Shown in pieces: positions 30,688 to 62,204 of a stretch of 64,000 nucleotides of DNA (positions are counted from its first letter, which is position 1; the number at the start of each line of letters is the position of its first letter). Origin of the DNA: Candidatus Aminicenantes bacterium (GTDB lineage Bacteria; Acidobacteriota; Aminicenantia; Aminicenantales; UBA4085); contig CAWANZ010000002.1 in assembly GCA_963783665.1 (NCBI GenBank), forward strand, positions 971,701 to 1,035,700, given 5' to 3'. The position numbers and the translations under genes are program-made. Below the pieces are notes generated by a model, which saw only the letters and a program-made list of their open reading frames with translations, was not told the origin of the DNA and did no database searches.

Positions 30688-32096
30688 ATGAGTCTCAAGA
30701 AGCTGGCCATTCTCATCATCGTGATCGTCCTGACGATCATCGTGGCCATCTCATGCAAAACGCAAAACATCATGCGGGGGGCCCATCGGGAAGACCGGGC
30801 CGGATGGACGTTGGTCCACCTGGAAGGCGCCTCCCGGGAGATCGGCTACCAGCACGGCCGGTTGCTTGCGGCCGAGATCGACGACCTTTTAAAAGCGATG
30901 GCGGTCAACCTGGAAAAGACCACCGGGCGCGACTGGCCGTTCTTCCGCAAGGCGGCCGAAACCATCCTCTGGCCGAAGATCGATCGGCCGGTTCAAATGG
31001 AGATCGAAGGCATCGCCGAGGGGCTTGCAGGCCGGGATCCCCGGATTGAAGTATGATCGATTCGATATCGCCGCCCTCAACGGCTGGATGGAGCTGGCCT
31101 GGTACTACGTCCCCGTCCTCGAGGCCGAAAATAAAGGGACGGCGGTCGAATCGAAGGCCCCCCCGTCCTGCAGCGCCTTCATCGCCACCGGGAGCTATAC
31201 CGCGGACGGCCGGATCGTCATCGCCCACAATATCTGGATGGATTACCTTACGGGCGAGCGGTGGAACGTGATCCTGGACATCGTCCCGGACACCGGGCGG
31301 CGGATGCTCATGGACGCCCTGCCGGGATTCGTCCACAGCGGCTCGGACTTCGCCTTTAACGACGCCGGTCTCCTGTTCACGGAGACGACGATCGCCAAGT
31401 ACGCCGGCTTCAATAAGGACGGCGTCCCCAGCTTCTCCCGCTCCCGCACGGCCGCCCAGTACGCCGCTTCCATCGACGATTTCATCCGCATCATGACGAC
31501 GAACGGAAACGGGGCGATGGCGAATTCCTGGCTGATCGGCGATCTGAACGCCAACGAAATCGCCCGGCTCGAGCTCGGGCTGAAAAACCACCGGGTCTGG
31601 CGGACGGGCGACGGGTATTTCGTCGGATCCAATTTCCCCTCCGACGAGAAGCTGATCGCCGAGGAAACAACCTTCGACCCGGGCGACGGGAGCCAATCGG
31701 TCTTCGTCCGGCGGGACCGCTGGGAGCAGCTCATGGCCGAAAATAAAGGGAAAATCGACATCGAAAAAGCCATGGCCTTCCTCGGCGACCATATCGATCC
31801 GAGAACGGGCGAAACCGCCGCGGGCGCCGACGCGACTCTGCGGGCATGTCGACCGGGATCCCAAAGGCGCGCCGGAATTCTTTTATCCGCCCTTCTGCCC
31901 GGCCGGCTCGACTCAGGGCAAGGCCACTTCGGCCGCCTTGGCCGAACAGATGAAATTCTGGGCCCGGATGGGCCACGCCTGCGGCGAGGATTTTGCGGCC
32001 GAGCCGTTTGCCGCCGCCCATCCCGAATTCGCCTGGCAGCTTCCTTACTTGAAAGACATGAAAGCCCATCCCTGGACCCTCTTCCAGGGGAAATGA
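30688..32096 (+). CDS. peptidase C45 / acyl-CoA:6-APA acyltransferase-like Ntn-hydrolase lipoprotein; two frame changes
   Basis: Lipoprotein signal MSLKKLAILIIVIVLTIIVAISC. Putative N-terminal nucleophile context PPSCSAFIATGSYTADGRIVIAHNIWMDY. The family-typical length and motifs are spread over ORFs 30688..31056 and 31025..32107 plus a third frame that ends ...HPWTLFQGK at the stop 32094-32096. Confidence 0.6.
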
Positions 32097-32109
32097 ATTC
32101 GGAATAATT

Positions 32110-32167
32110 CGGGGCCAGGTTACTCAACTCCCGAACCCGAGATCGGGAGTTGAGTAACCTGGCCCCG
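32110..32167. repeat. perfect palindromic element (MITE/REP-like): 25-bp arms cggggccaggttactcaactcccga with a 7-nt spacer
   Basis: Left arm 32110-32134, spacer acccgag, right arm 32143-32167 is the exact reverse complement, followed by atctttt. It lies 14 nt after the C45 stop. The same arms recur at 37861-37919 (full), 37297-37321 (half) and a diverged relative at 33892-33976. It also creates two artefactual ORFs that start MSNLAP on both strands. Confidence 0.8.
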
Positions 32168-32234
32168 ATCTTTTACCGATCTATTATGGAATATCGGCTT
32201 CCGCTGATCGTCTTTTTATTGGAGAATAAAGACG

Positions 32235-33817: not shown

Positions 33818-33846
33818 TCCCGGACCGCGGTTTCTTTCGTCCTCCG

Positions 33847-33889
33847 CCCCGGACCGGTTTCCCCACGAAAACCGGCCCGGGGCTTTTTA
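33847..33889 (+). terminator. rho-independent terminator-like hairpin followed by a T run
   Basis: ccccggaccggttt-ccccacg-aaaccggcccgggg, followed by cttttta. It lies immediately after the 33817 stop. Confidence 0.55.
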
Positions 33890-33891
33890 TT

Positions 33892-33976
33892 GGTGCCAGG
33901 TTAACCATTCCCCGATTAATTCAAATCTCCGGCGTTCGCGAAATAGGAGAATGGTTAACCTGGCACCGATTAAATA
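33892..33976. repeat. second palindromic element related to the 32110 family: 20-bp terminal inverted repeats around a 44-bp core
   Basis: tggtgccaggttaaccattc (33892-33911) and its exact reverse complement gaatggttaacctggcacca. The arms align with cggggccaggttactcaactcccga (shared gccaggtta-c-c...tcccga). The right flank cgattaaatac is tandemly duplicated. Confidence 0.7.
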
Positions 33977-34015
33977 CCGATTAAATACCAACGCCGGCCA
34001 GCGAAAAAAAATCGC

Positions 34016-34053
34016 TTGACATTTCGCCGCTCTGTATTATATTATTAATACAG
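34016..34053 (+). promoter_or_regulatory. sigma70-like promoter with an overlapping GntR-type operator palindrome, upstream of the GntR gene
   Basis: TTGACA (34016-34021), 16 nt, TATATT (34038-34043). Palindrome ctgtatta-tattat-taatacag (34032-34053) of the t-GT-N-AC-a type. GGAGG at 34059-34063, then GTG 34070. Confidence 0.5.
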
Positions 34054-34069
34054 TGATACGGAGGCGAAC

Positions 34070-34471
34070 GTGATCAACATCGATCCGGCAAGTTTTATTC
34101 CCCTTTACGAACAGGTCAAATCCGGCCTCCGGCGCGAAATCGCCCTCGGGTCTCTCAAGCCCGGCGGTCCCCTTCCCTCGATCCGCGACTTGGCCGCCGC
34201 CCTCCTCATCAATCCCAACACGGTGGCCCGGGCTTACACCGAGCTCGAGCGGGACGGACTGATCACGACCCGGAAGGGTCGCGGCTGTTTCGTATCGGAG
34301 GATTCCGGGGCCCTCCCCGGAAAGGAACAAGCCCAGCGCCTCGACGGAATCTTCGAGGCGGCCATCCAGGAAGCCCGAAAAACCGGGGCCGACCCGAACG
34401 AAATCCGCAAGGTCTTCGAGGACCGGCTGCGGTTTGTTTTCGCGGAACCCGGCAAAAGGAGGACGTCATGA
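34070..34471 (+). CDS. GntR-family transcriptional regulator, YtrA-like short subfamily
   Basis: Winged-helix PLYEQVKSGLRREIALGSLKPGGPLPSIRDLAAALLINPNTVARAYTELERDGLITTRKGRGCFV, plus a short (about 60 aa) C-terminal region. The stop overlaps the ABC ATPase start. Confidence 0.8.
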   Translation: MINIDPASFIPLYEQVKSGLRREIALGSLKPGGPLPSIRDLAAALLINPNTVARAYTELERDGLITTRKGRGCFVSEDSGALPGKEQAQRLDGIFEAAIQEARKTGADPNEIRKVFEDRLRFVFAEPGKRRTS

Positions 34472-35372
34472 GCGACCTGTTGAAAATCTCAGGACTCGGC
34501 AAGGACTTCGGCCGGAAGAAGGTCCTGCGCGACGTAACGCTCACCCTCGAGCCCGGCCGCGTGTACGGTTTATTGGGGCGCAACGGCGAAGGCAAAACAA
34601 CCCTGGCCCGGATCCTGATGGGCGTCATCCCCGCTTCCCGGGGCGTCGTGGTGTTCAAAGGCGAAAAAATCGACTTCCGCTCCGCCTCTTACAAGCGGGA
34701 GATCGGCTACATCCCGGAGGACCCGTTCTTTTACAGCGAGATGAAAACCGGGGAATTCCTCAAGTTCAACAGCCGTTTCTATCCCCGGTGGGACGCAGCC
34801 CGGGTTCGTTCCAACGTTCGAATCGCTCGGTCTTGACCCGAAGGCTCGCATCAGCGACATGTCCCGCGGCCAGAAGCTCCAGCTCGGATTCGTGGCCGCC
34901 GTCGGAGCGGCTCCGGACGTCCTCCTCCTCGACGACCCGACCTCCGGCCTTGACGTCCCGACCCGGCATGATTTCCTCCGCAACATCATCCGCGACCTGG
35001 CCGAACGCGGAACGGCGATCCTCTTCGCCACCCACATGGTCCACGAGCTGGAGCGGGTCGTCGACCACCTGTTTATCCTCCAGGGCGGCCGGATCACGCT
35101 CGACCGGAGCTTCGAGGACGTTAAAACCCTCGCCCGGCGCATCCGCCTTCGCTTCGACGGCGCTCCGCCGGATAAGCTCCCGATCGAAGGCGTCCTATCG
35201 CTCAAAAGGGAACCGGGCCTGCTCGAAGCGATTGTCTTTCCCTGGGACGAGAAAGCCCGAAAATCAAATTCGCTCCCTTTCTCTGACCCATTTCGAAATC
35301 GAGCCGCTTTCGCTCGAAGAGATTTTCACGGGATTCGTCGGTTCCGGTCCGGGCCGCCCGGACGCAAAATAA
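34468..35372 (+). CDS. ABC transporter ATP-binding protein; two frame changes
   Basis: Walker A GRNGEGKTTLARIL. Signature/Walker B region MSRGQKLQLGFVAAVGAAPDVLLLDDPTSGLDV and H-loop FATHMVHELE lie in the frame of ORF 34859..37294. The C-terminus ...LSLEEIFTGF reads to a stop at 35370-35372 in a third frame. Confidence 0.75.
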
Positions 35373-35383
35373 GGGATAAAGCC

Positions 35384-37294
35384 ATGAATAAAAACCTGAT
35401 ATTGAAGGAATGGAAGGAAAAGCTCTGGGTTCCGATTTTCGCCCTGGTTTTTCTCGTCCTGTTCGCGATCGCCGCCGTCGCTTTTGCCAAGCACGGAGAC
35501 ATCCTCGATTATCTGACCGGCGGGATCCAGATTTTCTTCCTCCCGCTCATCGGCGTCCTCCTCGGGGCGAGCGCCTTCAGTGCCGAATTCAAGGACGGCT
35601 CCTGGGCTTATCTCTTTTCCCGGCCGATTAAAAAATCCTCGATCTGGATTTCGAAATTCGCCGCCCTGGCCGGCCTGCTGGCCGCAATCGTCGCCTTCAC
35701 GTATCTCATCCTTCCCCTCATCCCCGGCTTCAAAGAACGCCTGGCCGAAGCGCCGCTCTGGGGACTCAGCCTTTTTATTTCGTTCAGCGTGTATATCGCT
35801 TCCTTCTCCCTGGCCTATCTCTCTGAAAAGCCGGTCCTCACTTTTTTTCTGACGCTCTTTATCTTCACCGCCTTTGCCGTTCTCGCGGTACTCCTTATAA
35901 AAGCCCTCGACTTTTCTTCTTTCAGGTCCCGCTCCCTTCAGGACGTGCCGTTTCTTGTGATTCTATTCACCTTTCTGGGCATTTTCGCCCTCGGTGCGGC
36001 TTCGCTTTACGCCTTCTGCCGGACGGATTTTTCCCGCCCACAGTCCAAGATCTCCGGATTCCTGAAATCCCTCGTCGTCTTCCTGGCCATCGGGACGGTT
36101 ACCGGCGGCGCTGGATGGCTCATCGCCCGGCAATTCCCGCGCCCAACGTTTATTCGCATGATTTCCGACGGAGAAGGTTCCATACTGCATCTCAACCGGG
36201 GAGTCTTCCGTTATGATTCCCAGCGCAATCGGTTGGAGAAATTGATCCGTTTCCAAAGACAATACTGGCTTGCCAGCCCCGCAGTCGGCGGCGGAAAAAT
36301 CACATGGGCCAAGGAATCAGTCAAAGGTTCAAGGCAGCGGCTAACTTGGGACCAAGAGCTCTGGATCATGGATATCGATGGCCGCAACAAACGGGCTATT
36401 TTTCATACCTCAGACAAGCCCGATTCCCCGCTTGCCGGAGACATGATTTATCATCTCAGTGTCTCACCCGATGGGAAACGGCTGATTCTGGTTTCCGATC
36501 CGGGATCACGATCGGGACATAAAAGAATTTGTAGCCTCAACAACGATGGGACGGGTCTTCGCTTCTACAGCACCGATCTTACTTACCTCGACTGGATCAA
36601 CGGCCTGTGCTGGTCATCAGACAGTCGAAGGATCGTGTTCGCGGCGACGATCAGACCGTCTGAAAGAGCTTCAAACAAACAAACGATCCGATATTTTCTC
36701 CTGGACCTGGAGGCCGGAGAATGGACCATGCCGCCCGAAGACCTCAGAGGATTCTCTGTCTATGGCGCGTCGCCAGATGGCAAATTGCTGGGTTACTTCG
36801 GGACCGACACGGCCGATGCCGCCTCCCCGAAAGAGATGCTCCGCTATTACAATATCGATACAAACGCAATTTCCGACATCGTCGCCGTTTCGCGCATCCA
36901 GTTGGCTAAATGGAGCCCGGCGGGTGATCGGATCGCTTTCCTTGCCGACTCCGGCCGCCGCCTGGGAATCATATCCGTTTCTGAAAAAACGCTTCTTGCG
37001 GAAACAGCCCTTGAAAAAGCCGAAATTGAAGCCCGCATTCCGAGGTCCATGGCCTGGACCTTGGACGGACAGAAGATCATTCTGGCCGATTTCCGCAATT
37101 CCGTACACGTCCTGCGGATCTTCGATCAGGCTCTCCGCGAAATCAAATCATTCCCCATTCCTCGGGAAGATATCCCTCTCGAGCATCTCCCGCAGCTTTA
37201 CTCGACCGGGGATAAGATCCTCGTTATGGATTTCACCGCCTCCCGGCTCTGGTCCTTCGACCCGGCCACGGAGAAGTGGAAGAAGCTGCTTTGA
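35384..37294 (+). CDS. ABC-2-type permease (6 TM) fused to a C-terminal TolB-like beta-propeller (PD40/WD40-like repeats)
   Basis: Intact 636 aa within the frame of ORF 34859..37294, from MNKNLILKEWKEKLWVPIFALVFLVLF. Six hydrophobic segments up to about aa 290. Then repeated HLSVSPDGKRLILVSD / YGASPDGKLLGYF / AKWSPAGDRIAFLADS motifs typical of TolB/PD40 blades. Confidence 0.65.
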   Translation: MNKNLILKEWKEKLWVPIFALVFLVLFAIAAVAFAKHGDILDYLTGGIQIFFLPLIGVLLGASAFSAEFKDGSWAYLFSRPIKKSSIWISKFAALAGLLAAIVAFTYLILPLIPGFKERLAEAPLWGLSLFISFSVYIASFSLAYLSEKPVLTFFLTLFIFTAFAVLAVLLIKALDFSSFRSRSLQDVPFLVILFTFLGIFALGAASLYAFCRTDFSRPQSKISGFLKSLVVFLAIGTVTGGAGWLIARQFPRPTFIRMISDGEGSILHLNRGVFRYDSQRNRLEKLIRFQRQYWLASPAVGGGKITWAKESVKGSRQRLTWDQELWIMDIDGRNKRAIFHTSDKPDSPLAGDMIYHLSVSPDGKRLILVSDPGSRSGHKRICSLNNDGTGLRFYSTDLTYLDWINGLCWSSDSRRIVFAATIRPSERASNKQTIRYFLLDLEAGEWTMPPEDLRGFSVYGASPDGKLLGYFGTDTADAASPKEMLRYYNIDTNAISDIVAVSRIQLAKWSPAGDRIAFLADSGRRLGIISVSEKTLLAETALEKAEIEARIPRSMAWTLDGQKIILADFRNSVHVLRIFDQALREIKSFPIPREDIPLEHLPQLYSTGDKILVMDFTASRLWSFDPATEKWKKLL

Positions 37295-37296
37295 AT

Positions 37297-37321
37297 TCGG
37301 GAGTTGAGTAACCTGGCCCCG
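37297..37321. repeat. solo half-copy (one arm) of the 32110-type palindromic element
   Basis: tcgggagttgagtaacctggccccg begins 3 nt after the permease stop (tga 37292-37294). The flanks gaat...gaatta match the full copy at 37861. Confidence 0.6.
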
Positions 37322-37341
37322 AATTATCGGAATGCGGAAGA

Positions 37342-37839
37342 CTAAAAGAACACGGCGACGGCGATGCCGACGAGCCAGCCGGCTAAAACGTCCGAAAAAT
37401 AATGCATCCCTAGGATGATCCGGGAAACCCCGACGGCCAACGCCCAAAGAACGACCGCCGCTCCAATAGCCGGCGACAAGTAAATGACCGCTAGCACGGC
37501 GAGAATCGCCGCCCGATTGGCATGTCCTGAGGGGAAGGAATGCGGGTCGACCAGGCGGTCAAACGCGCCCCAGCGCCCGTCAGGCCGGCGCCGTTTGAAC
37601 GCGAGCTTTAGCAAGCCGGTCAAAAACGTCCCAATCACCAGGGCTAACCCCGCTTTCCAGGCTCCGGCTTTCCATGGATCTTTGGTGAACAACCAGATCA
37701 ATCCGGCCGCCGGAAAAAGAATAGTCGTGTCGGCCGTATGGGCTAGGACGGCGAAAATCCACCGCCCCCTCCCCTCCCCCATTTTATGCAGCCGGGCGCT
37801 CCCTTCCGCGTCCCGGCGAATCAAACTTTCGAATATCAT
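37342..37839 (-). CDS. PAP2-superfamily phosphatase (membrane, acid-phosphatase / undecaprenyl-PP-phosphatase-like)
   Basis: Intact 165 aa. PAP2 motifs KLAFKRRRP, PSGH and SRIILGMHYFSD. Confidence 0.75.
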   Translation of the reverse strand: MIFESLIRRDAEGSARLHKMGEGRGRWIFAVLAHTADTTILFPAAGLIWLFTKDPWKAGAWKAGLALVIGTFLTGLLKLAFKRRRPDGRWGAFDRLVDPHSFPSGHANRAAILAVLAVIYLSPAIGAAVVLWALAVGVSRIILGMHYFSDVLAGWLVGIAVAVFF

Positions 37840-37860
37840 TCACCGGTATTATAACGAAAT

Positions 37861-37919
37861 CGGGGCCAGGTTACTCAACTCCCGAATTCGAATTCGGGAG
37901 TTGAGTAACCTGGCCCCGA
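37861..37919. repeat. second full copy of the palindromic element; a perfect 59-bp palindrome
   Basis: cggggccaggttactcaactcccga-attcgaat-tcgggagttgagtaacctggccccg. The spacer completes the palindrome (cccgaattcgaattcggg). It lies in the divergent region between the PAP2 (minus) and kbl (plus) starts. Confidence 0.8.
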
Positions 37920-37996
37920 ATTACTTTCCTTGTGGTATCATGATGTCAGACGGCTGCCCGGACGGCCGGGCCTGACCGGGCACGAGGAGGATTCCC

Positions 37997-39260: not shown

Positions 39261-41288
39261 TTACTTGAGTGATATCGAGGCGGCGGCATTCGCGTCGAAG
39301 CGCCAGATGAGAGCGGCTCCGAAGCGGGCCTCCTCGATGAAATAGGGATTGGTACGGAACCACGATTCCGGCAACAGCTCGACGCCCTCGTAGGCGGCAC
39401 TCCCCCGTTTCTCCGCAAGATAAACGTAATCCAGCCGTTCCCGAAGGAAAATCAGGGCCAGCGCTTCGGGATTCCCCTGCGTCGCCTGAATGTCCGCAAC
39501 CAGCCGCGTGGCCCGGCGCGGATCGATGTCCGAAGGCAGCCTTTCCGTGGCAAACTGGAGGGGGAGAAAAGGAATCCAGCGTCGGGTGAAATAGGGCATC
39601 CACCAGCCCGCGTCCGAACCCACCGCCGCCGTGTTGTTGAAGGCCAGGGTTGCATTCGTCAGAAATCGGGCTTTCTTCGGCGTATGCAACCGGATCCAGC
39701 GAAAGGCGTCGACGTCGTTTTTCTCAACCATTTGATAAAACGGATCGACCATCCGGGCCTGGCGTCCGAATCCGAAAGCCAGGGACGCGGCGATCGCCGC
39801 CGCAACCGCGATCCGACCGATCTTGATCCGGTCGAGCCGCACGGCCGCTTCGCCGACCGCGGAACCGGCCAGCCAGGCGATCGGAACGTAGAGCATGACG
39901 AGGAGGACGAAATTGCTTTCAATCCCGGTCCCGGGGAGGCGGAAGAGATAGGGATTGGCCGCGATGAAGGCGATCCCGATCCAGAGAACGAGGTCGGCGG
40001 CCAGCTTCCGATTCCGAAAGAGGGAAACGGCCAAAGAGACCGCGCCCGCGATCCAGAACCGCGGCCCGATATAAAATCCAAGCCGGGTCCACAGCCCGAT
40101 GTCCGTAACCCGCGGCCCCACGTCGGTCCGCATCGAAATCTTGATCCTTTGGGGCGTCCCGCCGCCTAAAATGGCGGGGATCCAGGGCGAAACCAGGGCC
40201 AAGGCCCCCAGGCCGGCCGCGACAAGCCGCCACATCCGGGCCCACCATTCGGCGAGCGATTTGCGGAATTCCCAGAGCGCGCGAAGCGACCAGGCGGCCG
40301 CAGCGCAGAGGGCGATGATCGTGACGCGATAATGGGCCATGAACATCCCGGTAAAAAGAAGAGACAAAAGTCCGATCGTTCCCGCTTTCGGCCGACGCGT
40401 GTCCCGCCAGAAAACGTCGAGAAACCAGATCAACGCCGGCAGAACGACCAGCGCGGTCAGCTGCGTGTACCGGCCCCAGTTGACGGAGAATCCAGGCATA
40501 ACCGAAAAAAGGCCGGCCGTCGCAACCGCCCCGAGCCCGGCCCAAACCGAACGTCCCAACCTCACGCCGACCGGGTAGAGCGTCAGTACGGCGAGGGCGT
40601 TCAAAGCCTGCCCCGCGGCCAGGACGGCCTGGATCGCCGGAACTCCGGCCGTAACCGCCCAGGCCGCGGAAGCAGAATGAAAGCCGAAGTGATACGTGAA
40701 CGTCGTCATCGGGGCATACGGCGCCCAGGAAGAAAACAGCCCCTTATTTTCGACCAGGAGACGGACGATCATCGTATGATGGACGGAATCGCCCCATAAG
40801 GGGGCGACGAGCCCGCGGACCGCGATCATCCGGGCGACGAACACCGCGGCCAGGAGGACGACGAAATAAACGGAATCGAGGGCCGGGCGCTTTTTTATCG
40901 CCGCGACGATTTTCGTTTTCCAGCCCTTCCCCCCGATGAAGACATTCCGATTCATCCAAACCAGGCCGATCGCGCCCAGGAAACCCGGGAGGACGAGAAG
41001 CGTTCCGGTCACGGGGATATGAACCAGCCGGGCGGCCAGATACAGAAACGGATAAACGGGAACGCTTAAGGCCGGCGCCAGCCCGGCTTTCATCTTCCAG
41101 GAGAGGCCGGCCGAAGGTCCGACCGCCCGAAGAAGCGCCCATCCGGGAAGGAGATAAAGAAATCCGCCGACGGCCAAATCGCGGAAAAGGGACAGGGCGA
41201 AATTCACGAACCCTATTGTGTCCGAAGACCGGGAGCCGGTCAACTCCGCGGCTCGCGGTTCCAAACTTATTTTCTCCGAAGTTGTCAT
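39261..41288 (-). CDS. large polytopic membrane protein (675 aa); possibly a GT-C-type glycosyltransferase or related membrane protein
   Basis: Intact ORF with more than 12 predicted TM helices and a C-terminal soluble domain of about 170 aa. No diagnostic motif was recognised. Confidence 0.45.
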   Translation of the reverse strand: MTTSEKISLEPRAAELTGSRSSDTIGFVNFALSLFRDLAVGGFLYLLPGWALLRAVGPSAGLSWKMKAGLAPALSVPVYPFLYLAARLVHIPVTGTLLVLPGFLGAIGLVWMNRNVFIGGKGWKTKIVAAIKKRPALDSVYFVVLLAAVFVARMIAVRGLVAPLWGDSVHHTMIVRLLVENKGLFSSWAPYAPMTTFTYHFGFHSASAAWAVTAGVPAIQAVLAAGQALNALAVLTLYPVGVRLGRSVWAGLGAVATAGLFSVMPGFSVNWGRYTQLTALVVLPALIWFLDVFWRDTRRPKAGTIGLLSLLFTGMFMAHYRVTIIALCAAAAWSLRALWEFRKSLAEWWARMWRLVAAGLGALALVSPWIPAILGGGTPQRIKISMRTDVGPRVTDIGLWTRLGFYIGPRFWIAGAVSLAVSLFRNRKLAADLVLWIGIAFIAANPYLFRLPGTGIESNFVLLVMLYVPIAWLAGSAVGEAAVRLDRIKIGRIAVAAAIAASLAFGFGRQARMVDPFYQMVEKNDVDAFRWIRLHTPKKARFLTNATLAFNNTAAVGSDAGWWMPYFTRRWIPFLPLQFATERLPSDIDPRRATRLVADIQATQGNPEALALIFLRERLDYVYLAEKRGSAAYEGVELLPESWFRTNPYFIEEARFGAALIWRFDANAAASISLK

Positions 41289-41375
41289 TTACATGAGCCC
41301 GGAATAAAATGGGCCTCAAAGGTACCCGTCTCGTGCCCCGATTGAATACGGGTTATGATTTCGCAAGGAGGGAAA

Positions 41376-42284
41376 ATGAAATCTTTGAAGCAGACCCTGG
41401 TGTTCGTGTCGTTGGCCGCATTCCTTGCCGGGCTGCCGGCGGCGGCGGATTACGGCGGAAAGAAAATCGAGTTCACCCTGTACGGGGGATACTCGCTCTC
41501 CTCCGGCACGGGAACGGCTTCAGGCAATCCTGCCGACCTGTATATCGGTAACTGGTCGCCGTTCTTCGGGGGCGGCTACGACGAATTCGGGTGGCTCATC
41601 GACATGGCCAATCTCGATTCGGTCATCGGGAAAAGCATCCTGGAGAGAAAGAGCGGTCCGCAATTCGGCTTCAAAGTCGGATTCAGGGTCAACCCGAGCA
41701 TCCAGGTCGAAGGCTTTTTCGAGTTCTGCCTGAGCAAATTCCGATTCACGGACGCGGCCTGGGGCCAGTACGAGGAGACGATCACGGCGGGCATGGACTT
41801 GCTGGAATCGATAGACCGGAATCCCAACGCAACCAATCTTTCCATGAGGGAAGAGGGCAAGGCCATGACCTTCGGACTGAACATCAATTTCGACCTGGCC
41901 ATGGACGGAATGGTCATTCCCTATGTCTCCGTGGGAGGCGTCGTCTCCCTGCTCCAGGGTTTCCCTTCGCTCGATTATGCCCTTGAACAATCCTTGGGGT
42001 CGAGTTCGGCCACATACGGCTTCATGCTGGATTACGCCGACGTCACGGCCATCGGCTTTGGCGGGGGGATCGGGGCTCGGATCTACATGGGCGAAAATAT
42101 GGGGATCAAGATCGAGGCCCGGGGAACCTACCTGCCGATCAAGGTCGAACAGCGCTATGCGGCGACGTTTGACCGGGTCGGCACGGCATTCTTCATTTTT
42201 CCGGAGTATGAGGCCATCGCCGCTGTGGAGAAAATCAACTCGTTCGTCATCACCCTGAACGCGGGATTTTTCTTCGGCCTGTAA
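41376..42284 (+). CDS. outer-membrane beta-barrel protein (OmpA-like barrel / porin family) with a signal peptide
   Basis: AAGGAGGGA RBS, then ATG 41376. Signal MKSLKQTLVFVSLAAFLAGLPAAA. Alternating beta-strand pattern. C-terminal ...LNAGFFFGL ending in aromatic-x-hydrophobic, as expected for OMP insertion. Confidence 0.5.
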   Translation: MKSLKQTLVFVSLAAFLAGLPAAADYGGKKIEFTLYGGYSLSSGTGTASGNPADLYIGNWSPFFGGGYDEFGWLIDMANLDSVIGKSILERKSGPQFGFKVGFRVNPSIQVEGFFEFCLSKFRFTDAAWGQYEETITAGMDLLESIDRNPNATNLSMREEGKAMTFGLNINFDLAMDGMVIPYVSVGGVVSLLQGFPSLDYALEQSLGSSSATYGFMLDYADVTAIGFGGGIGARIYMGENMGIKIEARGTYLPIKVEQRYAATFDRVGTAFFIFPEYEAIAAVEKINSFVITLNAGFFFGL

Positions 42285-42309
42285 GGCCTTCGCGGGAGAC
42301 GCCGTGATT

Positions 42310-42349
42310 CCGGGGGAAACCCGGGGCTGACGTCCCCGGGTTTCCCCGG
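42310..42349. terminator. GC-rich hairpin between convergent genes (possible bidirectional terminator)
   Basis: ccgggggaaacccgggg-ctgacgt-ccccgggtttccccgg, with a 16-17-bp stem and one bulge, between the OMP stop (42284) and the M56 stop (42370). No T run. Confidence 0.4.
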
Positions 42350-42369
42350 AACACTCGATTAAGAGGGCT

Positions 42370-43850
42370 TCACTTCACCGTTTTTTCCGACTTCGCCTTT
42401 CCGGCCAATGACTTTTCGTATTCCGCCATCATCTCGGTCGTCTTGGCCTGGATCTGCTTGAGTTTTTTTTCGAGATCGGCCTTCTCGGCGGGATCGGTCG
42501 TCTCACCGATTTTGGCCTTAAGGTCGGACTGCTTCGCTTTCAGCTCGCCGAGCATCTTTTTCATCTCGTCGGCCGAAAATCCGGACGAATCCCCGGCCAT
42601 GGATTTCATCTGAATCCCCTTCAGGGCTTCCTCTTTCTGCCGCAGCTTGACCATCTGGTCTTTCAGCTTGGCCTTCTCGTTCTCGTCCGCCGACTTCTCG
42701 TAAGCCGCCTTGATCGCCGCCTCCTTTTCCTTGAGCTCCGAGGCCATCGCTTTCAGCTCGGCCGGAGTCAATTCGGAAGGGGCGCCGTTTTTCAGGGAAA
42801 GCTCTTTCCGCTTCTGGGCGATCTTTTCGAGCTTCATTTTCAGCTCTTTTTTCGCGCCTTCATCGGACGTCGATTCCATCTGCTTGAGGACATCCGCTTC
42901 CATGGCCTGGAGCTTTTTCAGCTCTTCCTTGGCCTGGACGCTTTTTTCGTGAGACGGATCGGCGGCCTGGACTTTATCCAGGGCGGCCGGAGAGCCGGCG
43001 ACGAGGCGCGGCTGGGCGAAGGCCAGAACCAACCCGGCCACCAGGGGCAGGGCCAACAGAAACTTGAGCCGGGCCACGCCCGGCGATTTTATCCGAGACA
43101 ACATGATGATTCTCCTTTTGATCTGGGACTTCTTGAAATTGTTGCCGAACTCGAACAAACTGGCGCCCACGTTCTGCTCGAACATGTGCAGCTGGTACCG
43201 GACCGAGCTGAAGCCCTGCGCAATGACTCCCGAATCGGCCAGGTACTCGTGGGTTTCCTGAAGCGCTTTTTTGTATGGCCATACAAACGGATTGAACCAT
43301 TGAAGACTGAGGACGACCTCCATCAGGAGGACGTCGAGGGTGTGCTGCTGCCGGATATGGACGTGTTCATGAGCCAGGATCCGGCGGAGGTTCGCGTCGA
43401 GGGAGGGGCCCGGGTTGAGGAAGATGATGTCGAAAAAGGAGAAAGGGGAAAACAATCGCTCGACGGCGACGATCTTCACCCCGCGCAGGCGGCGGACCCC
43501 GTGGGTGCGGACGACGCGGCGAAGCTTGCGAAGCTGGAGGCCGAAGCCGCAGAAGGAAGAACAGGCCGCGCCCGCGCCATAGAGGATGACGAGGAGCTCG
43601 GCCAGACCGAAACCGCCTCCGGACACGGCCGAAGCCTGAGGAATTGCGCCCGAGGCCGGGACGATCAGGGTCTTGAAAGGGCGAGGTGATGGGAAAAGCG
43701 GGGATGAGGAGGGAAAGCCACAAGCCCGGAGACGAGGAAAATCCGGTTGAGCTGAAAGAACGTCTCCCGTTTCAGGAACAGCTCATAGATCAAGAAAAAA
43801 ACGGCCAGGCAGAGGCCGGATTGGACCAGGTAGAGGAGGAACGGTTTCAT
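42370..43850 (-). CDS. BlaR1/MecR1-like M56 zinc metallopeptidase transducer with an atypical Lys/Glu-rich coiled-coil C-terminal domain
   Basis: Four N-terminal TM helices (MKPFLLYLVQSGLCLAVFFLIY...). HEXXH motif ILAHEHVHIRQQH and downstream EYLADSGV. The C-terminal 230 aa are low-complexity (KEELKKLQAMEADVLKQ ... KAKLKDQMVKLRQKEEALK) rather than a penicillin-binding sensor domain. Confidence 0.75.
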
Positions 43851-44232
43851 TGGCTTCGCTCCCTTTTGCTTCTCGATCTCTTCGTTCAGGCGCTTCCGGA
43901 TTTCCTCCAATTCCTCCAGGCTGAGGTCCCGCCCGCCGGCGAAAAAGGACACCATGTCCGGGAAGGAGTCTCCGAAGTAGCGCGAGAGGAAGGATTTGAA
44001 GAATTTCTTCTTGTACTCGTCCTTCGTGATCAGGGGGTAATATTCGTACGTGTTGCCGTAGGCCTTGATGGGAGACAACGCCCTTCTTCTCCAGAATGCG
44101 GATGATCGTGGAGACCGTGTTATAGGCCGGCTTCGGATCGGGGAGCTCGTCGACAATGTCCTTGACGAACGCCTTTTCCAGCTTCCAGAGGATCTGCATG
44201 ACTTGTTCTTCGGCTCGGGTGAGTTCTTTCAT
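43847..44232 (-). CDS. BlaI/MecI/CopY-family transcriptional repressor; one frame change near 44060
   Basis: MKELTRAEEQVMQILWKLEKAFVKDIVDELPDPKPAYNTVSTIIRILEKKGVVSH in ORF 43783..44232. The dimerisation part YEYYPLITKDEYKKKFFKSFLSRYFGDSFPDMVSFFAGGRDLSLEELEEIRKRL is in ORF 43665..44156. In the assembled sequence this frame runs without a stop into the M56 start; one base fewer in an aaaa run would give a stop overlapping the ATG (ATGA). Confidence 0.7.
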
Positions 44233-44435
44233 GGCGATTACAATGTAAAACTAAATATATTAGTTTGTCAACTATTATTTTCGTTTTCATGGCGAAACCT
44301 CCCCCAAATCGCCTCAACTCCTGTAATAGAAACGCTATGAATCGCTATTTTGGTGCAGAGGTCCGGGCTATTTCTTGACACTTGCCGGGTGCCCCCGGCT
44401 ATGCTTTCCCCCAAGCCGGCTCGGACGGCCCAGAA

Positions 44436-60470: not shown

Positions 60471-60822
60471 GAATAATCACGGCCGCCTGCCTGATAATAG
60501 TCATTTCTCGGGGAAATATGCCGCGGACAGACCGTCATTGAGCGCCACAAATAGACACTCTCTGTTACATTTTGAGGGACATTATTTCCGTTCAAATATT
60601 CCCTTCGAAAATAGTCTCTGCGGACCGCAATGAGGTTCGTGGCGCGTCAGTCTACCCTACCGTCTATATCACTCTCCTGGACGCAGAAATATATCAAGGC
60701 GTACTTTATTAAAAAGAGATTCTCGGCATTCAAAGAGAAAATATATGTTGATATATATTATTTTCGCTTCTCAAGCATTAAATCGGATTATTATTCAACC
60801 TTACCGTTATATTCGATAATTC

Positions 60823-61943
60823 TCATTCATATATACCTTTGATTAAGTTGTAATTATTAATTTTCACTATTACTAATTTACTTTTTTCTTCATCATCACT
60901 ATTATTTTTTATTATTGCATATATCATTCCTTCCTTAATTACCTTCGGAAATACTGGAAATTGCACTTTATATAAATAAAGCGCATCTTTCCCAATAATA
61001 TCAATCTCCTCTTGAATATCGTCATCGATTATCGATTTTTTTCTCTAATAACATATATTAGTCCTTTTTCATCGGATAGCAAACCACTTATAAAAGGACG
61101 ATTTTCAGGAATATTAGGAGTAATTTTTATTTGTACTCCAGATATTTTAGTATTATTCACTATCTTTTCTATTGCGTTTTTCTCTTCGATGCTAACTTTT
61201 TGGGGTTTTTGTTTTATCGAAATAGATTCTTTCATCGTCCCGTCTTCATCATATGAAAACACTTGATAATTTGTATTATCTGCGTACAACAAACCATTTT
61301 CATTTATTATTGAATAAAAGGCTCGTTTTTTATAAGGGTGACTAATAGATATATTTATCTCACTTATTTTTGTGCTATTTTCATCAATACTCAATGAAAC
61401 GATTTGCCTTTCAGCCTTTCCATTTGAATTTATTTTATATAATGCAAGCTCATTATTATTGCTCACATCTCTTCTCATCGTATACATTAAACACATTTTA
61501 TTAATACATACATCGTATTCTGGAAGTAATAATAAATTAATATTTTTTTGAAACGTTAGATTTTTGTCAAATAAGACAATTTTATATCTATCAAATATAT
61601 AAATGTTTCCCAAATAATCACAAGATACTTTATTGGGTATTTGTTGAAACTCTCCAGGCTCTTGCCCGAATATGAATTTTTTACTAACGATTATTTCACT
61701 ATCTTTGCTAATTTTTAATATATAAGCATTCGTAATCGCAATAATATTTTCCTCAATATCTACATCAAAATCATATGCCTCATAGTTTTCAGTATTATTA
61801 ATAAATATTGGAAATTCAAGTACAGTTTTTTGCTCATACTCAAGAAGAAATTCTCCATATATTGGCTTTGGCATATTAATAATACTTTTAATATTATCGA
61901 ACGAAGCAATAATAATATTAAATAACAATATTAGAGAAATCAT
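60823..61943 (-). CDS. low-GC lipoprotein-like beta-propeller protein (resembles Bacteroidetes 6-bladed beta-propeller / BF3164-type lipoproteins); one frame change at a T7 run
   Basis: About 30% GC versus about 65% for the window. AGGAGGA RBS, then ATG 61943. N-terminal hydrophobic MISLILLFNIIIASF. Repeated blade-like IYIFDRYKIVLFD / GLLYADNTNYQVFSYDEDG motifs. The ORF stops at 61029, but one extra T in the T7 run (61036-61042) continues it for 69 codons (KKSIIDDDIQEEIDIIGKDALYLYKV ... NYNLIKGIYE) to a stop at 60823-60825. Confidence 0.55.
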
Positions 61944-62204
61944 ACTTTCCTCCTAATAATGGCAGTGTTAGGAAATCTGTGTAAACCGCTTATTTCCATT
62001 TACGCTTGTCCCCCCATCCGATCATCGAAATATATCATTAACTGGGAATATATCAGTAGCGCAGTCTCTCTGCCGAAAGGTCCATTATTTCTGCAGCATC
62101 TTCCACGGTGAGGAAGACTTGTTTGAGGCTCTGGATCGGATTCATTGTATAGACCATGATCCGGATTTCCGGAGGATATTTAAAAACAGACTAGGAGCGG
62201 TTGG

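Follow-up and report, generated by a model that had tools for sequence, protein, structure and literature searches.

The DNA considered here, referred to as the window, is a 64,000-nucleotide (nt) stretch of a Candidatus Aminicenantes bacterium genome (GenBank assembly GCA_963783665.1, contig CAWANZ010000002.1, positions 971,701 to 1,035,700). Open reading frames (ORFs) in the window define three genes, gntR, abc, and permease, arranged head to tail on the plus strand at 34070–37294. They encode a 133-amino-acid (aa) GntR-type regulator, an ATP-binding cassette (ABC) ATPase of 300 aa after repair of two frameshifts, and a 636-aa protein that joins an ABC-2-like permease to a predicted beta-propeller. 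A preliminary description of the same DNA, made from the letters alone, had proposed this tight unit, which proves to be real and, with the corrections given below, largely correct in outline. With moderate confidence the unit is read as a self-contained, autorepressed operon of the YtrA type, whose product would be an ABC-2 exporter with external propellers that expels or hands over a compound.

The gntR gene (34070–34471) begins with a GTG codon, 5 nt downstream of a GGAGG ribosome-binding site (34060–34064). Its stop codon and the ATG of the ATPase gene share the 4-nt sequence ATGA (34468–34471), an overlap that had been described correctly. The ATPase gene (34468–35372, plus strand) ends with TAA at 35370–35372, and the permease-propeller ORF (35384–37294) is intact and begins with ATG after 11 nt, one fewer than first counted. 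Upstream on the plus strand, a terminator-like GC hairpin, GCCCCGGACCGGTT...AACCGGCCCGGGGC followed by TTTTT (33846–33888), ends the preceding 170-aa-type gene, thereby insulating the operon, and the related locus L004 has a comparable hairpin and T-run at the equivalent position. As this hairpin closes the preceding gene, the unit is expected to have a promoter of its own. An Rfam scan of 31.9–38.2 kb detected neither a riboswitch nor a leader within the 5′ untranslated region of the operon. Compared with L001, a 94%-identical locus in the metagenome-assembled genome (MAG) GCA_964411395.1, all three genes display purifying selection, with ratios of nonsynonymous to synonymous substitution (dN/dS) of 0.10–0.24 (gntR 0.12; repaired ATPase 0.10).

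The regulator was initially taken to be a short YtrA-type GntR protein, and its Pfam score, length, and solved relatives all agree with this. Residues 12–75, the N-terminal winged-helix DNA-binding domain, match Pfam GntR (PF00392) with 64.4 bits (cut-off 27; 7.7e-18). The best solved relatives are without exception short GntR proteins of 121–134 aa, including Cgl2947 and the Sulfolobus YtrA. Near end-to-end alignments are obtained with 3neu (125 aa), 4ham (134 aa), 3by6, and 4r1h, while 6sbs and Cgl2947 (2du9) align over the N-terminal ~80 residues. By its sequence the regulator belongs to the YtrA subfamily, using the definition of PMC5080381 and PMC6746942, in which these proteins have a very short C-terminal effector/oligomerisation region and a length of ~120–135 aa. 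YtrA-like regulators are usually encoded by the first gene of an ABC-transporter operon and repress themselves together with the ABC system through ~24-bp palindromes (PMC6746942). The gene order here is the same, and we infer that gntR is co-transcribed with the two transporter genes. PmtR/PmtABCD and ClnRAB are peptide-responsive examples of the type (PMC5080381; PMC6117091). The regulator does not qualify as a PmtR equivalog, as the NCBIfam PmtR model (NF047563) aligns to residues 5–116 with 64.5 bits against an equivalog cut-off of 200.

Sequence comparison indicates that the promoter and putative operator of this unit are unusually well defined and deeply conserved. The strong sigma-70-type promoter (34016–34043, plus strand) consists of TTGACA (34016–34021), a 16-nt spacer, and TATATT (34038–34043), with 11 of 12 positions agreeing with the consensus; an alternative −10 element, TATTAT, lies at a spacing of 18 nt. 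Extending across the −10 hexamer is a putative YtrA-type operator, the 22-bp palindrome CTGTATTA-N6-TAATACAG (34032–34053), whose arms at 34032–34039 and 34046–34053 match perfectly. Both the promoter and the overlapping palindrome had been noticed at the outset and both stand. This specific motif occurs once in the window. Perfect 8-N6-8 inverted repeats are not rare, with seven in the window, and the palindrome is considered significant because of its position and its conservation in ~30 related loci.

This conservation is pronounced. The palindrome is present 5′ of gntR in 30 related loci, with two or fewer mismatches over the 16 specified positions in all but one of them. It is always found 9–12 variable nt after an invariant TTGACA and 16–19 nt before the start codon, and its arms hold 1.3–2.0 bits of information versus 0.1–0.6 bits in the adjacent spacer. 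The palindrome therefore behaves as the clear phylogenetic footprint of an operator, and it is a candidate for the long site (~24 bp, with distant half-sites) that YtrA proteins recognise in their own promoters. By analogy with those proteins, the operon is probably autorepressed by its own GntR regulator.

Two further conserved elements adjoin the promoter on the plus strand. Just 5′ of the −35 hexamer lies an A-tract (34004–34011), possibly UP-element-like, with 1.4–2.0 bits across 19 anchored loci. On the other side, the element TGATACGG (34054–34064) repeats the right half-site in direct orientation and merges into the GGAGG ribosome-binding site. This third half-site has the consensus T[GA]ATAC[GA]G and is conserved like the palindrome arms, with T.ATAC columns reaching 2.0 bits; in several related loci it is an exact second TAATACAG. 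It could offer the regulator a second contact, or it could be constrained as part of the first stretch to be transcribed or translated. For Sulfolobus YtrA, extra half-sites are reported to flank the core motif (PMC6746942).

The repaired product of the second gene matches Pfam ABC_tran (PF00005) with 82 bits (cut-off 25) and has the Walker A sequence GRNGEGKT. In its Walker B sequence, LDDPTSGLD, an Asp aligns to the catalytic Glu of ABCA3, and among 120 homologues examined an Asp follows the Walker B Asp in all 106 where the pattern was located. The ABC signature is MSRGQK here and LSRGxK family-wide. The Q-loop position also deviates throughout the family, with a Glu (IGYIPE) aligned to the Q-loop Gln of ABCA3. 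The ATPase thus differs from the canonical enzymes in catalytic Glu, Q-loop Gln, and LSGGQ signature alike. A Glu at the Q-loop position is termed an E-loop and is described as a hallmark of LanFEG lantibiotic-immunity transporters, which expel amphipathic peptides (bioRxiv 10.1101/2025.10.09.681468). Among solved structures the ATPase comes closest to ABCA-type nucleotide-binding domains, Rv1218c, and NosF (7o0y, 1.2e-27). Among curated families it comes closest to GldA, PmtA, lantibiotic protection, and DrrA, with all scores below the cut-offs.

The expectation that an ABC ATPase is encoded was correct as to the domain, but the gene is not a single ORF in the window, where it is frameshifted twice. 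It is read in frame 1 up to a stop at 34836, with the Walker B half in frame 2 and the C-terminus in frame 3. Alignment to L001 locates two single-C insertions, at ~34811 and ~35256. Removing both C bases results in a 300-aa protein whose sequence at either site agrees exactly with that of the intact homologue P0177 (97% identity overall), and the frame is intact in L001, P0177, and nearly all related loci. Seven further +1 insertions are found just upstream, in the Band_7 gene, the Phospholip_B gene (two), the extracytoplasmic function (ECF) sigma gene, and the 170-aa-type gene (two). Relative to L001 this gives nine +1 insertions and zero single-base deletions across five genes within 5.3 kb, with no frame errors in the following 6 kb. 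The positions listed for the single-base insertions are ~30047, 31027, 31834, 32586, 33360, 33537, 34811, and 35256.

Because the neighbouring genes contain seven more +1 insertions and relatives have an intact 300-aa gene, the ATPase frameshifts are most probably consensus or assembly errors of a patchy assembly rather than biology. The other way to read them is as genuine lesions in a decaying pseudogene cluster, leaving the ATPase and transporter of this genome non-functional. The ATPase does contain two uncompensated insertions, five consecutive upstream genes are frameshifted as well, and the damage is clustered ahead of a clean stretch. Yet all nine lesions are single-base insertions, as is typical of read or consensus error, and the dN/dS of the ATPase is also low past the first frameshift. 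Moreover, gntR and the 1.9-kb fusion gene are intact, homologues at 94–97% identity from other samples are undamaged, and crude tracking of the reading frame by codon usage points to numerous additional frame switches on the same strand in other parts of the window, notably at 4–16 kb and 44–48 kb. Decay is therefore regarded as quite unlikely.

Programmed ribosomal frameshifting was also considered and rejected, as it would need two uncompensated +1 events; the seven like insertions in unrelated neighbours and the lack of the extra bases in relatives also count against it. A further consequence of the insertions is that frame 2 runs stop-free into the permease, creating an 811-aa chimeric ORF. 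P0161, recorded from a 1.14-Mb contig, is 100% identical to it, and the source record appears to list this ORF as a gene. This "ATPase-permease fusion" gene call is false, a product of the indels, and the locus illustrates how indel errors in this assembly generate such calls.

The true fusion is that of the third gene. Its membrane domain, residues 1–249 (35384–36130, plus strand), combines an ABC-2 six-helix core with a seventh linker helix. The assignment to ABC-2-like permeases, made from the first inspection, is borne out by ABC2_membrane_4 (31.3 bits; cut-off 27) and ABC2_membrane_5 (29.3 bits; cut-off 25), both above the Pfam thresholds. The six transmembrane helices originally proposed have to be corrected to seven hydrophobic helices. 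In a model produced by AlphaFold2 from a 14-sequence family alignment, with a whole-model predicted local distance difference test score (pLDDT) of 81.7, helices extend up to residue 249 and residues 219–249 form one long helix. The topology displays a positive-inside bias, with mean Lys plus Arg of 10.4 in the predicted inside loops versus 4.1 outside, and a conserved segment, EFKDGxWxYLFSRP, predicted to be a cytoplasmic coupling segment, follows helix 2.

Residues 257–636 (36152–37294 including the stop codon, plus strand) are predicted to form a beta-propeller of the PD40/TolB/S9-peptidase type, as suspected from the outset. The AlphaFold2 model of this half is all-beta, with 32 strands in eight groups of four. 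Foldseek against the PDB matched it to the propeller of the S9 carboxypeptidase 8wt1 at 4e-11 and to TolB (7mx5, 2w8b, 2hqs) at ~1e-10, with a probability of 1.00 for S9-peptidase propellers, TolB, tricorn, and a trilobed-protease propeller. SPDG-like repeat motifs recur at residues 359, 409, 461, 509, 557, and 605. Neither of the two domain results that the preliminary description had named as refuting it, a C-terminal half other than a propeller or a permease half unlike ABC-2, was obtained. Sequence-level propeller models remained below threshold on this protein, with 19.1 bits for PD40 (cut-off 20.9), 21.1 for DPPIV_N (22), and 21 for TIGR02800 TolB (343).

The side of the membrane on which the propeller lies depends on the seventh helix, as seven helices would place it outside and six inside. 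In canonical ABC-2 permeases there are six helices and both termini are cytoplasmic, and if helix 7 were not membrane-spanning the propeller would act at the inner face, for instance in regulation or in recruiting substrate next to the ATPase. Helix 7 has the lowest hydrophobicity of all (mean Kyte-Doolittle 1.29), and the 16 residues past it average 2.4 Arg/Lys in the 14 aligned sequences, both of which are in keeping with a cytoplasmic propeller. Such a location is nonetheless judged very unlikely, given that the model shows residues 219–249 as one long helix like the other six, that the conserved DFSxP loop joining helix 6 to helix 7 is positively charged and fits the inside, and that bacterial PD40, TolB, and S9-type propellers are typically extracytoplasmic. 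The predicted N-in, seven-helix topology would instead put the propeller outside the cytoplasmic membrane.

The fusion had been called unusual, and it is indeed uncommon, but it is not singular. An exhaustive profile search recovered ~65–70 full-length fusion clusters (600–670 aa) at 50% identity, below which there were only generic multi-propeller proteins. When the membrane domain was used by itself as query, a single fragment was retrieved, giving no view of unfused relatives or other fusions. Among species-representative genomes the family occurs in 32 MAGs, 17 named Candidatus Aminicenantes or Aminicenantales and the rest with placeholder names. Every named holder across ~30 cassette loci is a Candidatus Aminicenantes, even at 25–30% permease identity. 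The order gntR-abc-fusion is preserved in 31 related loci after removal of redundancy, even where permease identity falls to ~25% and the surrounding genes are unrelated. A full-text search found no literature on ABC-2 permease/beta-propeller fusions or on GntR-ABC transporter systems in Aminicenantes. The regulatory design is textbook; what sets the family apart as an uncharacterised, lineage-restricted variant is the joining of permease and propeller, along with the seventh helix and the changed motifs of the ATPase.

Variation on the cassette is seen in two settings. In one relative (L013, 2032–5893) two tandem permease-propeller paralogues follow a single gntR-abc pair, which suggests a heterodimeric membrane domain in that lineage. 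A structurally different cousin of the family occurs in the Isosphaeraceae (Planctomycetes), where two MAG loci (L041, 2619–8179, and L042) carry a distant cassette of GntR, ABC ATPase, and tandem 682- and 690-aa proteins. These proteins have the N-terminal KEWRE permease motif in common with the family, a different central soluble domain, and extra C-terminal helices with a Cys-rich tail, CPKCR...C.HCG; Pfam has no family for the 682-aa protein. The cousin ATPase also reads LDDP, and both loci have an operator-like site, CTGTACTA-N7-TAGTACAG, at the same place.

Of the characterised systems, PmtR-PmtABCD of Staphylococcus aureus resembles the unit in having a small YtrA-type GntR regulator as first gene, an overlap with the ATPase gene, and one operon promoter. 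Repression by PmtR is relieved by an exported amphipathic peptide, and Pmt exports phenol-soluble modulins (PMC5080381). The ATPase here aligns to PmtA at 5e-37 but reaches only 127.6 against the equivalog cut-off of 350. Pmt also has two ATPases and two permeases versus one of each here, its permeases lack a propeller, and its phylum and cell-envelope type differ from those of Aminicenantes. The YtrA-YtrBCDEF system of Bacillus subtilis shares the short regulator and the long palindrome (22 bp here, ~24 bp typically). The ytr operon is tied to cell-envelope and antibiotic stress (PMC8060467, PMC12772383). Unlike the present unit, it encodes two ATPases, two permeases, and the FtsX-like YtrF, and no beta-propeller.

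LanFEG transporters such as NisFEG, the latter classed as a type V ABC transporter (bioRxiv 10.1101/2025.10.09.681468), also have an ABC-2 permease, represented here by ABC2_membrane_4, and an E-loop Glu in the ATPase. The match of the ATPase to the lantibiotic-protection model TIGR03740 is 4e-34, with 118 bits against a cut-off of 309.75. The LanE/LanG pair lacks an external propeller, in contrast to the single permease gene with a propeller in this family, in which the catalytic Glu is moreover replaced by Asp. The genes neighbouring the cassette have no relation to lantibiotic synthesis. Membership of LanFEG is ruled out by the single permease, the missing lantibiotic context, and the sub-cut-off TIGR03740 score.

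NosDFY, which functions in copper delivery to N2O reductase, is similar in pairing an ABC-2 permease and its ATPase with a large domain in the periplasm, and, as noted above, NosF is one of the solved structures related to the ATPase here. It differs in that NosD is a separate beta-helix protein and NosY has six helices, and no nos gene context exists at the unit. The C-terminal domain has its best structural matches in the propellers of TolB and S9 peptidases, and it shares their SPDG-like PD40 motifs. Neither the N-terminal alpha/beta domain of TolB nor the catalytic domain of S9 peptidases is part of the fusion protein. TolB is a soluble periplasmic protein with six blades, whereas the propeller here has about eight predicted four-stranded groups and is anchored through a transmembrane helix to an ABC permease. 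TolB membership is ruled out by the membrane permease at the N-terminus, the TIGR02800 score, and the absence of tol or pal genes near the unit.

Following the YtrA paradigm, a regulator dimer on the palindrome would occlude the −10 hexamer and silence its own gene together with the transporter genes. An envelope-related signal would release the regulator and allow expression of the operon. The resulting complex would consist of two 300-aa ATPases beneath two 636-aa membrane proteins, with the seventh helix returning each chain across the membrane so that one propeller per half-transporter lies on the outer face. To judge from its relatives, the transporter may be of the type V fold class. Powered by ATP, it would expel an amphipathic, envelope-active compound such as a peptide, or pass it on, with the propeller binding the compound or handing it off outside the cytoplasm. 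For the substrate, an amphipathic peptide or some other molecule active on the envelope is the best guess because of the analogy with PmtR/Pmt, ClnRAB, and LanFEG and because propellers of this class belong to a peptide-binding fold class.

Several points weigh against this exporter reading. Operator binding and repression are inferred, as are co-transcription, topology, the direction of transport, and the class of substrate. The PD40 and TolB sequence models are sub-threshold, and the propeller call rests on a structure predicted from a 14-sequence alignment. The substitution of Asp for Glu together with LSRGxK may mean slow or atypical ATP turnover, which would fit a switch or mechanotransducer over a high-flux pump. 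A downstream ~400-aa protein present in about a dozen relatives is missing here, so this copy may lack a partner. Finally, if the frameshifts were real, the system would be dead in this organism.

Some of these points bear on a different account, in which the complex would not strictly be a transporter but a mechanotransducing ABC system, with the binding and hydrolysis of ATP in the cytoplasm driving the external propellers to act on a periplasmic or outer-membrane partner, as in NosDFY, FtsEX, and LolCDE. The non-canonical catalytic motifs found family-wide and the large external domain on each half-transporter would be consistent with such a role, as would the sequence similarity of the ATPase to NosF; in addition, the Joint Genome Institute (JGI) names several family members after a NosY-type permease. 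In many relatives the partner could be the downstream ~400-aa lipoprotein. A secreted gene of this size (DUF5128-type or other lipoprotein) lies immediately 3′ of the fusion gene in ~12 loci, and in the distant loci DUF5128-type genes occupy the downstream position. In L001 (8037–9242) and L004 (6921–8111) a ~400-aa lipoprotein-like gene is located between the fusion gene and a PAP2 gene. This gene is absent from the corresponding 37294–37342 of the window, where half of a palindromic element is found instead, and also from L002 and L003, and thus cannot be an obligatory partner. Pfam detects no NosD-like, FtsX-like, or MacB-like domain, and the analogy is architectural only. Mechanotransduction is consequently seen as possible without being probable, and the exporter with external propellers is preferred.

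A more ambitious extension, which we consider doubtful, is that the family represents an unrecognised ABC-2 (type-V-like) class, restricted to Aminicenantes so far. Each half-transporter would carry its own external propeller, and the ATPase would have dispensed with the usual catalytic Glu and Q-loop Gln. Rather than a simple efflux pump, the complex would be a slow, ATP-gated device that captures peptides or components of the envelope in the periplasm or passes them on, in many cases jointly with a propeller lipoprotein encoded downstream. YtrA-ABC cassettes rank with the commonest small regulatory modules of bacteria, and to our knowledge very few have a known substrate. With its built-in extracytoplasmic domain, well-defined promoter-operator, and altered ATPase motifs, the family offers a tractable model for the coupling of ABC-2 transporters to periplasmic modules and for the signals sensed by YtrA regulators. 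The locus is also among the few lineage-specific envelope systems identifiable so far in the uncultured Aminicenantes.

The genes surrounding the unit are less constant. The preliminary description envisaged an envelope-focused block including an ECF sigma/anti-sigma pair and a "C45 Ntn-hydrolase" lipoprotein, the last of which matches Pfam Phospholip_B instead. The block holds in part, in that the ECF sigma, putative anti-sigma, and Phospholip_B neighbours are syntenic in the closest relatives (L001, L003, and L004), but it is absent around the distant cassettes L006–L008. The ECF sigma block was set aside as a functional partner, as the linkage is lost in distant family members. Pfam gave no match to the putative anti-sigma protein, to the neighbour of 170 aa, or to the 401-aa protein that L001 encodes downstream.

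On both sides the unit is bordered by palindromic elements, as had been stated, and these resemble repetitive extragenic palindromic (REP) elements. Between the upstream terminator and the promoter, a diverged REP-like hairpin (inverted repeat I6, 33885–33974) folds at −46.7 kcal/mol with a z-score of −7.4, and L001 and L004 carry analogous hairpins at the same position. At the other end, a half copy (37290–37327) abuts the stop codon of the fusion gene. These belong to a hairpin family with the core GGGGCCAGGTTACTCAACTCCCGAA, found in the intergenic gaps 32092–32185, 33885–33974, 37290–37327, and 37857–37923, and the PAP2 gene (37342–37839) is bracketed by inverted copies. Relatives have their own sequence variants at the same positions. 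In the 31.9–38.2 kb region no Rfam family matched the REP-like elements at gathering score, the only matches being sub-threshold microRNA-like hairpins.

Elsewhere in the window, ~3 kb (41246–44352) between a DUF6541 gene and the next shared gene is missing from the syntenic L001. A low-GC island at 60600–62000 has 26–32% GC versus 60% for the window. It contains an intact 304-aa ORF on the minus strand (61029–61943), which has no Pfam match and displays only faint pairwise similarity (E ~3e-4 to 1e-3) to the ~400-aa downstream proteins of relatives.

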